Shown one piece after another: positions 53,145 through 55,487 of a stretch of 64,000 nucleotides of DNA; the first letter of the stretch is position 1, and every line of letters starts with the position of its first letter. The DNA is from a virus. Taxonomy: Duplodnaviria > Heunggongvirae > Uroviricota > Caudoviricetes. The translations under genes and the position numbers were made by a program. The notes under the pieces were generated by a model that saw only the letters and a program-made list of their open reading frames with translations, had not been told where the DNA came from and did not search any database. The stretch is from the IMG/VR virus record IMGVR_UViG_2897358383_000002; one strand, given 5' to 3'.

Positions 53145-53220
53145 TGGTGGCCCCTACCGGACTTGAACCGGTGACCGTGCGATTATGAGTCGCCAGCTCT
53201 AACCACTGAGCTAAAGGGCC
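53145..53220 (-). tRNA. tRNA with CAU anticodon, closest to E. coli tRNA-Ile2 (lysidine-type)
   Basis: cloverleaf read manually; anticodon loop CUCAUAA; encoded CCA; similar to ileX as I recall. Confidence 0.8.
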
Positions 53221-53494
53221 GGATTACTGTTTCCTGAGTGCTTCTATGACGCCAGCAATACCGCCTACAACTATGCCAGCAATGACAACGAGAACAATTG
53301 GATGCTTGTCAGCAAAATCCCAGAAGCCCATCACTGATCCTTAGAAGCTGTTTTTAATATCGGCCATACCAATGTTACAGCTACTGCTACCAACGCCCCG
53401 TCGGATAAAACCGACAGGATTGTGCTGGTGAAATCCACCAGCACAGATAGCACGAGAAAAACCAAAGCCAGAATTAGACGTGCTTTTATAACCA

Positions 53495-53920
53495 TCAGAT
53501 ATACTGTTCCAGTGGCAATTGAAGAGCCTGGGCAATTTTCTTCAATTGCTCCTGCTCTTCTGCCCCAATGCCATCCTGGTCAGCAATATCAATGCATAGG
53601 CACAGAACATCTACCGCATCATTAGTTCCAGACACGTCAGCCAGTTCACGTAAAGCCTGGGCATTCGCTCGGCGCGGCGAGGCTTCATATTGAGCGCGAA
53701 TATTGGCGCTCATCTGGGCAATTTCACCGGAGAACGGCGCAAAGGCAGGAAGTGCTGCAATGGTTTTTTCCAATACTGCAATTTCTTTCGCATCGCAGGT
53801 GCCGTCAGAGTATGCAATGGAATATGCGCCCCAGACAGTCGCTTCCACCGCATCACGGTTTTCCATCTTCTTGACTCCGCCAGCCGCTTTGCGGAATTTC
53901 TTTTTGAGAATGCCGAGCAT
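53495..53920 (-). CDS. TerB-like protein (P1 TciA-like), 141 aa
   Basis: repeated SDG/DQDG...E helices typical of TerB; position in ban/tRNA operon. Confidence 0.5.
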   Translation of the reverse strand: MLGILKKKFRKAAGGVKKMENRDAVEATVWGAYSIAYSDGTCDAKEIAVLEKTIAALPAFAPFSGEIAQMSANIRAQYEASPRRANAQALRELADVSGTNDAVDVLCLCIDIADQDGIGAEEQEQLKKIAQALQLPLEQYI

Positions 53921-54570
53921 TTATTAACCTCATTACTGGTTGGGAAATAAGGTTGCGGTGCCGGGTGCTTCCCGGTGTCCTTTAGCTGGTTATCCACCGT
54001 GGACGGGGAAATAAGGAGAAATAATGGACAGATATAACCATTTCCCCGCGTGCGCTTAGCCGCATTCACCGCAACGGAAAGAGCATTCCTGGTGGACCTG
54101 TAGATTGGGATATGAACCCGTTACAGGAGAATGCTCTTACCTGTTACGTGCTCCGTTTCGTGGAGCTAACGGCGGGTGATCGGGCCGCACCAGACTGGAC
54201 TTATTTCAGCGTTATGCTCATGCCAGAGAATCAAACTGTGATGGTCGGTGCTGAACTCCGACACAGGGTTGTAGCAAGCCCCGCAAAGCGCGCACTACTG
54301 TAGTTGCGGCACATCAGCCTGTGCATTCACCACAATGTTGAGAACACTGGTTGTCACGCTGCAACGCAACATTTATTCGTAGATTGGGATATGACCCCGT
54401 TACGCCAGTGTTCTCAACGTTGTAGTGCCGGTTACGGTTCCGGCCAGGCCTCTTCCTCAACGGGGTGTTCTCCATACGGACTACCGTTTATTGGTCGTTC
54501 CTGCGGTTTATGTTGTGAAGCCAGATGCTTATCTTCTGGTTGCTTCAAAGAGCTGCACTTCATCACAACG

Positions 54571-54650
54571 GTAAGGGTACTTCGTAGGGATTCGAACCCT
54601 CTGCCAAGCTCGGCGATCTCCGACGTCGCAAAATACCCTTACCTGTTGTG
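54571..54650 (-). ncRNA. tRNA-like element: 8-bp terminal stem (GGTAAGGG/CCCTTACC) enclosing a canonical T-arm (GGTTCGAATCC) but no standard D/anticodon arms
   Basis: manual folding; directly 3' of tRNA-Thr on minus strand. Confidence 0.3.
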
Positions 54651-54651
54651 C

Positions 54652-54728
54652 TGGTGCCGATTAACGGACTCGAACCGCTGACATCCTGCTTACAAGGCAG
54701 GCGCTCTACCAACTGAGCTAAACCGGCA
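54652..54728 (-). tRNA. tRNA-Thr (anticodon UGU)
   Basis: manual cloverleaf; anticodon loop CUUGUAA; encoded CCA. Confidence 0.8.
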
Positions 54729-54729
54729 T

Positions 54730-54805
54730 TGGCGATGGTGGATGGATTTGAACCATCGACCCGTTGATTAACAGTCAACCGCTCTAACCGCTGAGCTACA
54801 CCATC
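54730..54805 (-). tRNA. tRNA-Asn (anticodon GUU)
   Basis: manual cloverleaf; anticodon loop CUGUUAA; encoded CCA. Confidence 0.8.
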
Positions 54806-55470
54806 ACTTGCCGGGTACGTCTCCGGCGAGGGCTTCCACCTCCGTATGCTTTTCGGCGCACCGCGCCCTGGCTGCAATTCGGTAACAGGGGATGCACAAC
54901 CCTGGCTTCCAGCGTGATTAGCGCCTTCAGCATGACGGGATATACCCGTAAATTCGTGGAACTGTACCCAAAGTGCTGTTAAGCACCGCTGTTACGCTGA
55001 AAAGAAAACGCAACAGGAAAGGACGCTGACCAACAGATGGCCCCTTCTCGTTCATCTGGTTAATCACACCAGCGCCCTTACCTGTTGTGCCTCCCCGTTC
55101 CCTAATACACAGACGGGGACACTCTGCGGTCGATTTTTTGACGGGGGACGACTCATACCCCGTGGCATCTGGCTTCTTAGGCCGCTACCATCATCAGATC
55201 ATCGTTTGCATTTACTTTAATGGTCAGTTTCTAAACCGCCGCAAAGTCGCTAACCATGACGAAAACCCTGAAAAAAACGCCCACCCGAAGATGGGCAAAC
55301 TGGAAGCTCGTAACGCACTTCGGCGTTGCCACTTAGGCGCATGGCCAACCTGGCAACTCGGTGGTTTGTCTGGGAGGACTAGGCCCAGCCATGCTTACCG
55401 CCGCGCCTGTCGCGGCTAACAGCTAAATCGCTCTATAAATCACGATTCATTGAGGCGATATTACACTAAT

Positions 55471-55487
55471 AAATTTATTAGAGCAAT
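55471..55487 (-). promoter_or_regulatory. C1 operator, perfect 17/17 (ATTGCTCTAATAAATTT), heading the tRNA-tci-ban operon
   Basis: exact consensus on minus strand overlapping the dmt stop. Confidence 0.7.

Follow-up and report, generated by a model that had tools for sequence, protein, structure and literature searches.

A repeated structured RNA module in the untranslated leader of the phage P1 ban operon

The DNA analysed here is a stretch of 64,000 nucleotides from IMG/VR record IMGVR_UViG_2897358383_000002 (the window). A segment of 2.6 kb around its tRNA region is 99.9% identical to phage P1, and the window is P1. According to the P1 record, the minus strand of the window carries the C1-repressed ban operon, with Oban, a dicF-like region, tRNA-Asn, tRNA-Thr, tciA, tciB, tciC, trnI and ban following one another on one strand. 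The untranslated leader of this operon extends about 1.5 kb from Pban to tciA and harbors four copies of an undescribed structured RNA module, which is mis-annotated as Upl and Plp. Every copy contains a long hairpin (hairpin I, copies A to D), and in three of them a second large hairpin (hairpin II) follows. The copies are paralogous, hairpin I has kept its structure through compensatory sequence change, related modules lie in leaders in the orientation of the downstream genes, and hairpin II matches the lambda N leader and the prophage small RNA (sRNA) STnc100.

Four paralogous copies of hairpin I in the ban leader

A structural search of the 64-kb window found exactly four such hairpins, all in the ban leader, where 0.19 would be expected in shuffled sequence. 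They are listed in the order of transcription, together with a small hairpin that adjoins the last of them.

55009-55089, minus strand: hairpin I-D; the upstream copy of a 16-mer, GCACAACAGGUAAGGG, makes up its 5' arm; fold of -45.9 kcal/mol, z = -4.9 (repeat D7; structural search)
54564-54650, minus strand: hairpin I-C; minimum free energy -42.3 kcal/mol, z = -5.6
54331-54424, minus strand: hairpin I-B; the 25-nt motif copy at 54379-54403 forms its apical hairpin (GGGGUCAUAUCCC); fold of -49.2 kcal/mol, z = -6.5 (repeats D2, D4 and I1)
54070-54148, minus strand: hairpin I-A; contains the 25-nt motif copy at 54100-54124; z = -4.6 (repeats D3, D4 and I4)
54150-54166, minus strand: small hairpin GCUCC-ACGAAAC-GGAGC directly 5' of I-A (fold; recurrent GGAGCA left flank)

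All four copies of hairpin I are more stable than their shuffles (z of -4.6 to -6.5), and none of 200 shuffles of I-C was as stable. A repeat finder recovered the same relationship from the primary sequence: a 3' flank (GCATTCACCGCAACGG-type, read on the plus strand) is common to three stretches, and a 5' flank (AACAGGTAAG-type, minus strand) is likewise common to three. The initial annotation, made from the DNA letters, had pointed to a 25-bp motif occurring twice near 54,103 and 54,378 and to a minus-strand sequence recurring 440 bp apart. Both repeats are present. The copies of the 25-nt motif (54100-54124 and 54379-54403) are identical at 24 of 25 positions, and those of the 16-mer (54636-54651 and 55075-55090) are identical and 439 bp apart. 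They are not separate features, since the 16-mer makes up the 5' arms of C and D and the 25-nt motif is the apical hairpin within A and B.

Hairpin I-C, directly 3' of tRNA-Thr, had been described as a tRNA-like element with an 8-bp terminal stem, a perfect T arm and no canonical anticodon arm. Structure prediction upheld a stable fold, the T arm (GGG-UUCGAAU-CCC, with a UUCRANY loop, at 54587-54599) and the lack of an anticodon arm; the terminal stem is about 21 bp long rather than 8 (6 bp, a bulged A and 15 bp). Above this stem lie two small hairpins, UCGG-AGAUCG-CCGA and the T-arm-like GGGUUCGAAUCCC, and the fold is not a tRNA cloverleaf. A distinct tRNA-like regulatory RNA is not what the comparison supports: the element is one of four paralogous hairpins, in which the stem and the 3' flank are conserved and the T arm is not.

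Hairpin I-D differs from the other copies in its surroundings. It is followed directly by UUUUCUUUU, a U-rich run, with no hairpin II, and it might terminate or attenuate transcription before the tRNAs are reached.

Pairing is conserved through sequence change

The basal stem of hairpin I is about 20 bp long (CACAAC(A)GGUAAGRGCAUUG paired with CAGUGCUCUUWCCGUUGUG) and carries a variable apical cargo. Across 53 distinct arm pairs, 95.7% of the aligned cells are paired and 11 of the 20 base pairs change on both sides, a result that none of 500 shuffles reached; on the transcribed strand, G-U pairs number 88 and A-C mismatches 21. The arm pairs were collected partly by their pairing, which inflates both the paired percentage and the G-U excess. 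A sample chosen by the flanking motif only was used as well. Here 43.7% of 103 instances (88 distinct arms) have an upstream partner matching at 13 or more of 14 positions, versus 11.1% after permutation, a control value that is high because many arms are similar. A naive test of 10-mer complementarity did not discriminate, as shuffles scored equally, and the anchored and permutation tests were used instead. The structure of hairpin I is thus conserved through sequence change, with compensatory changes.

Hairpin II follows hairpin I and resembles the lambda N leader and STnc100

The tail that follows hairpin I, RUGAAUGCGCAGGCUGAUGCGC, was found in at least 120 IMG/VR contig stretches. In many of these contigs the next open reading frame (ORF) encodes a lambda-N-like or P22-N-like protein, and in others a holin or YfdP. 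The tail belongs to hairpin II, which consists of a 5' arm ending in RUG, the trinucleotide AAU, a small hairpin GCGCAGGCUGAUGCGC, a variable centre, a penultimate hairpin GCCGGAGAUCAGCACCGGC and a 3' arm starting with CAY. The penultimate hairpin, together with a 3' arm complementary to the instance's own 5' arm, is present in 79 of 106 motif-selected instances. Complementarity to the own arm averages 8.9 of 12 positions versus 7.3 after permutation, with a maximum of 7.6 in 200 permutations. A downstream hairpin II partner accompanies 64 of the 82 distinct hairpin I contexts. The P1 leader has three copies:

54512-54569, minus strand: hairpin II-C; 5' arm GUUGUGAUGAAG (GUUGUG in common with I-C), penultimate hairpin CCAGAAGAUAAGCAUCUGG, 3' arm CUUCACAAC (motif coordinates, fold)
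54235-54336, minus strand: hairpin II-B; AUUGUGGUG-AAU-[GCACAGGCUGAUGUGC]...[GUCGGAGUUCAGCACCGAC]-CAUCACAGU (fold, structural scan)
53952-54075, minus strand: hairpin II-A, the STnc100-like tciA leader; closing stem GUUGCGGUG/CACCGCAAC (Rfam RF02076, fold, structural scan)

A structural scan recovered II-A and II-B, and all three copies share the hairpin II architecture of the lambda type. II-B fits the consensus UGAAUGCGCAGGCUGAUGCGC...GCCGGAGAUCAGCACCGGC-CAY and has a compensatory change in its first small hairpin. II-C carries a bulge, and its module recurs in plasmids of the SSU5-like type and in IMG/VR contigs. The end of II-A lies 32 nt ahead of the tciA start codon (AUG); II-A matches the Rfam STnc100 model (RF02076) over model positions 31-147 of 206 with 33.4 bits and E = 6.5e-5, below the gathering score of 47.

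The two hairpins are physically coupled. The six nucleotides GUUGYG with which hairpin I finishes also begin the closing stem of the hairpin II that comes next. As a consequence, the 5' box CACAAC of hairpin I and the 3' arm CACCRCAAC of hairpin II compete for the same strand (X-X'-X). In P1, the closing stem of II-A competes with the base of I-A, and when unit A is folded alone the II-A stem is closed and the base of I-A is open.

In the contigs with an N leader, hairpin II is preceded by nutL, with recognisable boxA and boxB (among them an exact P22 boxB), and followed by the ribosome-binding site of N. Its arms align with GGCUUUGGGGUGUGUG...CACACACCACCAAAGCU of lambda. This lambda stem is the RNase III site of the N leader, where the pL transcript is cut at about +88 and about +197, both within the arms. 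Cleavage of the lambda N leader by RNase III is reported to affect N translation (work of Court, Kameyama, Wilson and colleagues). STnc100 in phage 933W has the hairpin II architecture as well. By sequence and predicted fold, hairpin II appears to belong to the STnc100/PasD group and to be the counterpart of the large hairpin before lambda N.

Two further elements of the window were recorded in the same searches. A hairpin-II-like candidate lies in the immI leader (28153-28217, minus strand; GGCUUAAUG-AA, a penultimate hairpin and CAUUGAGCC), just upstream of isrK (28032-28109) and C4 (27919-28006) and beside a C1 operator at 28184-28200. It could be a chance match, as 2.4 are expected when the penultimate hairpin is not demanded. 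Rfam also places STnc490, an Hfq-binding sRNA family, at 7916-8039 on the plus strand with 146 bits.

Hairpin I is a widespread stem with exchangeable cargo

Among the members extracted, the shared stem bears 31 unrelated cargo types of 9-129 nt; in the minimal members there is a 9-nt loop only. A canonical T-arm-like hairpin is found in 4 of the 31 types, with five motifs in 1742 nt against 0.35 expected. The arms of I-C are kept in P7, RCS47 and Ro157c2YLVW, whereas its interior is swapped for an unrelated 43-nt sequence. The T-arm-like hairpin is therefore a recurrent but optional cargo and not a defining part. The number of units also varies among close relatives. RCS47 has one extra unit, and SJ46 has a 254-bp deletion ending at the two copies of the 25-nt motif (locus L006, about 2576-2600, corresponding to window 54124/54379), which fuses A and B. 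Because the endpoints lie in these copies, the deletion is direct evidence of recombination between paralogues.

The modules are common to the P1 leader, lambdoid prophages and SSU5-type phage-plasmids. The hairpin I stem follows tRNA-Thr or tRNA-Asn in SSU5-type IncFIB phage-plasmids of E. coli, E. albertii and Klebsiella. The pattern of the hairpin I 3' arm was found, like the tail motif, in at least 120 IMG/VR contig stretches, many on contigs of 30-50 kb, and the family occurs in more than 240 IMG/VR contigs. The 3' half is matched in 1149 of 5426 complete E. coli genomes, always in unannotated stretches. A scan of species representatives gave 56 matches, about two-thirds of which are chance matches without a 5' arm, as the length of the pattern predicts; counting only matches with both arms, hairpin I is present in about 12 named genera of Enterobacterales, including Serratia, Pantoea, Rahnella, Rouxiella, Klebsiella and Citrobacter.

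The annotated contexts are always leaders, and the hairpin is always co-oriented with the downstream genes. The arrangements are Q, the tR' terminator, hairpin and holin; a CI-like repressor, hairpin and yfdP-Q-R; hairpin and Gp49; and Pban of P1. Directly upstream of hairpin I there is always a structured 3' end, namely a tRNA (CCA plus 1 nt), a terminator or a small 5-bp hairpin; the small hairpin at 54150-54166 in P1 sits where other family members have tRNA 3' ends or terminators. Many members have a small hairpin with a GAAGAGA-type loop in front of them. Phage 933W has STnc100 after stxB and no hairpin I, and in other phages hairpin I occupies the site where 933W has stx inserted. The leader upstream of yfdP in CPS-53 of E. 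coli K-12 is truncated and has no hairpin.

No Rfam family covers hairpin I in P1 and 13 related loci, either at the gathering score or at E <= 10, where only spurious matches of miRNA type appeared. A full-text literature search found nothing relevant on the motif sequences or on the ban/tRNA region of P1. Identity with the put RNA of HK022 was considered and rejected, since HK022 has no member of the family.

The tRNAs, the operator and other features of the operon

According to both ARAGORN and Rfam RF00005, the window contains three tRNA genes and no others; each is encoded on the minus strand. They are the three species that the initial annotation had named (Asn-GUU, Thr-UGU and an Ile2-like tRNA with a CAU anticodon).

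54730-54805, minus strand: tRNA-Asn (GUU) (ARAGORN; Rfam, 74.5 bits)
54652-54727, minus strand: tRNA-Thr (UGU), with an encoded CCA after which hairpin I-C begins 1 nt downstream (ARAGORN; Rfam, 72.9 bits)
53145-53220, minus strand: trnI, anticodon CAU, Ile2 type (ARAGORN, Rfam, PGAP, P1 record)

ARAGORN labels the CAU tRNA as Met on its anticodon only. PGAP/RefSeq names the identical gene, and chromosomal relatives with 88.6-89.9% identity, tRNA-Ile, and the P1 record gives it as tRNA-Ile2, 89% identical to ileX. Judged by its sequence, the tRNA has a body of the Ile2 and not the Met type. In the 35 long ORFs of the window, AUA makes up 16.8% of Ile codons and ACA 24% of Thr codons, both roughly twice the E. 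coli values. With such shares, trnI and tRNA-Thr fit a role in ordinary codon supply, which for these two tRNAs is a simpler account than the anti-defence role suggested earlier.

The tRNA set differs among close relatives. A class II tRNA-Ser(UGA) cassette takes the place of hairpin I-A in P7 (locus L002, 2673-2759) and D6 (locus L003, 2682-2768). A tRNA-Tyr(GUA) is inserted between Asn and Thr in several relatives (loci L004, L008, L011 and L012), and tRNA-Arg(UCU) replaces tRNA-Asn at loci L007 and L014. The junction after the tRNA (CCA, then A or G, then CACAAC) recurs in relatives.

The remaining features of the operon are as follows.

55460-55487, minus strand: bivalent C1 operator Oban (Op72a/b), overlapping the ban promoters at the operon head (consensus matches, P1 record)
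55270-55297, minus strand: intrinsic-terminator-like hairpin with a U7 run (UGCCCAUCUUCGGGUGGGCG plus U7), in the 'dicF-like' region (within 55261-55362) (terminator scan)
53224-53920, minus strand: tciA (TerB family), tciB (DUF3927) and tciC, the first protein-coding genes of the operon (ORFs, Pfam TerB and DUF3927, P1 record)
52865-53144, minus strand: untranslated leader between trnI and ban (sequence comparison)

A perfect C1 operator at the operon head had been noted before. It is the 17/17 match ATTGCTCTAATAAATTT at 55471-55487 (minus strand), the sole perfect site in the window, and is annotated as Oban, formerly Op72, a bivalent C1 operator carrying the ban promoters. A second site, matching at 15 of 17 positions, overlaps it at 55460-55476 (plus strand). 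In total, nine sites with at most two mismatches are present in the window against 0.02 expected. The seven others, with one or two mismatches, lie at 6918, 24986, 25069, 28184, 39844, 45609 and 58993, consistent with the dispersed C1 regulon of P1. The tRNAs and the operator are already part of the P1 annotation and are not new.

The terminator-like hairpin lies about 175-200 nt downstream of Pban and could mark the end of a short leader transcript similar to lambda 6S or StxS; expression of the ban operon would then need read-through. Rfam gives no DicF match in the 'dicF-like' region. At the other end of the operon, the stretch between trnI and ban (52950-53144, minus strand) has homologues in Stx2c phages and in an e14/CPS-53-like prophage, where the corresponding leader separates a CI-like repressor from yfdP (locus L135, 4760-4945). 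A minimal hairpin I directly follows a stretch of this type in D6 and in the plasmid of locus L007; P1 has none there.

The repeats are not protein-coding

A conserved protein frame over the repeats would have spoken against a non-coding module, and two genes are annotated here:

54112-54681, plus strand: upl (54112-54303) and plp (54304-54681; 'putative lipoprotein'), antisense to tRNA-Thr and the hairpins (P1 record)

No such conserved frame was found. The ORFs exist on the plus strand (63 and 125 codons) and are annotated in the P1 and RCS47 records. However, plp runs antisense over tRNA-Thr, and its frame is split in two relatives (P7 and RCS47), meets an in-frame stop in two others (Ro157c2YLVW and locus L012) and has lost the start codon in SJ46; upl is lacking altogether in P7, D6 and SJ46. 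Pfam, which does match tciA and tciB, gives no match for upl, for plp or for a 43-codon ORF in the region, and PGAP places no coding sequence over this 1.18 kb in RefSeq P1-like plasmids. On these grounds we do not regard upl and plp as genes. They look like errors of annotation whose names have spread to RCS47, JL22 and other records, and the possibility that the repeats lie within real genes is already contradicted and retains next to no probability. Small ORFs starting from the RUGAAK tail, among them the 43-codon minus-strand ORF after C, were likewise rejected: they vary in length, the start is lost at locus L008, a stop is present in Ro157c2YLVW, and a Shine-Dalgarno sequence is lacking.

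Discussion

The explanation favoured here, with moderate confidence, is that hairpins I and II are cis-acting structured RNA in a long untranslated leader for tRNAs and small RNAs, with a role in processing, stability or translation control. The leader would be a polycistronic precursor of the tRNAs, of small structured RNAs and of the tciABC-trnI-ban mRNA. Hairpins I and II would be double-strand-specific processing sites, and the enzyme is most probably RNase III, a choice held with lower confidence than the cis-acting role itself; it is suggested by the homology of hairpin II to the lambda site and by stems of about two helical turns. Cleavage would separate the tRNAs and stable small RNAs from the tciABC-trnI-ban message. 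The resulting hairpin-capped ends may set the decay of the RNAs and the access to the first ribosome-binding site, given the position of II-A just before tciA.

Several points weigh against this explanation. In addition to the inflated pairing figures and the high permuted control given above, the proposed role of RNase III is drawn from the homology of hairpin II to the lambda site and from stem length. The basal stem is far more conserved than RNase III needs, pointing to a partner that reads its sequence or to frequent recombination. The Rfam STnc100 model misses II-B and II-C, and hairpin I-D, with no hairpin II, may act differently.

Alternatively, the modules may be genes for trans-acting, Hfq-binding sRNAs of the STnc100/PasD type, with the cargos as exchangeable seeds or decoys. 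II-A resembles STnc100, and STnc100 and PasD are reported to be base-pairing prophage sRNAs (PMC12370729; bioRxiv 10.64898/2026.05.13.724894). The presence of at least 31 cargo types on a constant scaffold is what specificity swapping would look like, and the 25-nt motif is nearly unchanged between the cargos of A and B. Against this, no promoters of their own are predicted in the hairpin region, there are no terminators after the P1 modules other than the one in the dicF-like region, and the minimal members have no cargo. A separate sRNA function is unlikely, although it keeps some weight; it is compatible with the processing model and does not exclude it.

The hairpins could also serve antitermination, as Nus-factor boxA or anti-Rho elements acting over the 1.5-kb leader in the manner of rrn operons and nut sites. 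The commonest 3' arm reads CAGUGCUCUU(U/A)CC and is followed by GU-rich GUUGUGGUG; within it is UGCUCUUU, the rrn boxA core, or GCUCUUAC, the form in lambda nutR. A search for boxA (GCUCUUUA or GCUCUUA) finds UGCUCUUU in the I-A 3' arm AUGCUCUUUCC (54076-54086, minus strand), which includes the boxA-like octamer, and in the majority of the family. Every context is the leader of an operon in which antitermination is known, the hairpins with GAAGAGA loops precede many members, and heavy structure alone could hinder Rho loading. However, the octamer is paired within a 20-bp stem, whereas NusB/NusE bind single-stranded boxA. It is degenerate in copies B, C and D of P1, where departures from boxA are compensated on the opposite arm. 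The genuine boxA-boxB nut sites of the N-leader contigs are separate from hairpins I/II and upstream of them, and several family members come after tR', that is, downstream of a terminator. A nut site with single-stranded boxA, boxB and a cognate N is not found in the P1 operon: the octamer is paired and the operon contains no N-like ORF. An antitermination role is accordingly regarded as improbable.

A more speculative possibility is that hairpin I is a carrier resembling a pri-miRNA. The conserved stem would be recognised by its sequence and cut, the cargos would act in trans as decoys or regulators, and the X-X'-X competition would be a co-transcriptional switch that picks the product. Within this proposal, the T-arm-mimic cargos might target, for example, tRNA-directed host enzymes or defence nucleases. 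The proposal as a whole is a doubtful one; if true, the family would be a new and very widespread class of exchangeable small RNA cassettes in temperate enterobacterial phages.

The reading closest to the initial annotation is that I-C is a tRNA-like RNA recognised by RNase P or tRNA enzymes, as a regulatory RNA or decoy. A canonical T-loop hairpin does abut the 3' strand of the long stem, and the hairpin begins 1 nt downstream of the CCA encoded in tRNA-Thr and, in P7 and D6, after tRNA-Ser. Cleavage at the 5' base of I-C would also make the 3' end of tRNA-Thr, as in MALAT1/mascRNA. T-arm-like hairpins are enriched in the cargos, and the C4 RNA of P1 is a substrate of RNase P. Nevertheless, neither ARAGORN nor the Rfam tRNA model, even at E <= 10, recognises I-C. 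It has no D arm, no anticodon arm and no 3' CCA, its 'acceptor' is about 21 bp long, and the T arm is missing from 27 of the 31 cargo types; P7 has an unrelated cargo on the same stem. In Klebsiella plasmids the hairpin shares 2 nt with the CCA of tRNA-Asn, an arrangement at odds with cleavage at the base of the hairpin. A tRNA-like function of I-C is therefore quite improbable.

Finally, the inverted repeats could act as DNA, as boundaries of recombination or mobility (similar to attC sites or miniature inverted-repeat transposable elements) that shuffle cassettes of tRNAs and small RNAs. The ends CAYAAC...GTTGYG, with invariant AAC/GTT, resemble the R'' and R' boxes of attC, whose consensus is RYYYAAC/GTTRRRY. 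Cargos are swapped between close relatives, tRNA-Ser, tRNA-Tyr or tRNA-Arg cassettes lie at hairpin boundaries, and the SJ46 deletion falls exactly between the 25-nt copies. Such exchanges are explained by ordinary homologous recombination between the 20-bp arms. The fit to attC is partial, since the boxes read YRYRAC/RTTGYG and agree with the consensus at AAC/GTT only. The annotated contexts show no linked integrase of an integron and no transposase, and by these marks hairpin I is not an integron attC. The orientation follows transcription, the conserved flanks are asymmetric and run into hairpin II, and G-U pairs outnumber A-C mismatches on the transcribed strand, though selection favoured G-U. 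A DNA-level role is highly improbable.

About one in five complete E. coli genomes carries a match, which puts hairpin I among the most widely distributed conserved non-coding elements of E. coli prophages that still lack annotation. If correct, the processing model accounts for the maturation of tRNAs and small RNAs from long untranslated phage leaders, and the conserved stem is a handle for tests. The family also offers a model for Rfam and a correction to the annotation of P1-like genomes.

Comparison with known systems

Integron attC sites, like hairpin I, are imperfect palindromes that have AAC/GTT ends, contain an extrahelical base, vary in the centre and sit at the 3' ends of cassettes. 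They differ in that hairpin I fits the consensus in part, has no integrase, is strand-specific with transcription and has an asymmetric flank. The C4 RNAs of P1 and P7 and the CI RNA of P4 are immunity RNAs processed by RNase P, small structured RNAs cut from a C1-controlled leader of the same phage, as is proposed for the modules described here (C4 lies at 27919-28006 of the window); unlike them, copies A to D match no model of the C4 clan and have no acceptor-like end with CCA. The RNase III stalks of rRNA operons and the stable RNAs of the T4 tRNA cluster likewise place long stems around or beside stable RNAs in an untranslated polycistronic precursor that includes tRNAs, with a boxA-like neighbour. 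There is no sequence homology to these, and the cargos of hairpin I are short and optional.

STnc100 and PasD, related prophage sRNAs of the Q-holin region, are closer. In the preprint that describes them, the 5' end of PasA is made by cleavage of a longer transcript (bioRxiv 10.64898/2026.05.13.724894). II-A shares with STnc100 the closing stem, GGUGAAU, the first hairpin, CCGGGARGCACCCGG and the 3' arm with CACC, and both kinds of element lie in prophage leaders, beside TerB genes or in Q-holin regions. They differ in that II-A stays under the gathering score (33.4 vs 47) and that II-B and II-C are undetected by the model.

The lambda N-leader hairpin agrees in position and in its aligned arms with hairpin II of lambdoid contigs, and the closing stem, RUGAAU, the first small hairpin, the penultimate hairpin and the 3' arm are shared by II-A, II-B and II-C of P1. 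The lambda leader even has a miniature 'hairpin I' (CAAAGC-AGAAG-GCUUUG) that competes with the large stem for the same strand. P1 lacks an N gene and a nut site in this leader, carries three copies in tandem where lambda has one, and has a hairpin I enlarged to a 20-bp stem with cargo. Hairpin II, to which hairpin I is coupled, links the RNase III hairpin of the lambda N leader, the STnc100/PasD sRNAs and the ban leader of P1, which until now have been treated separately.

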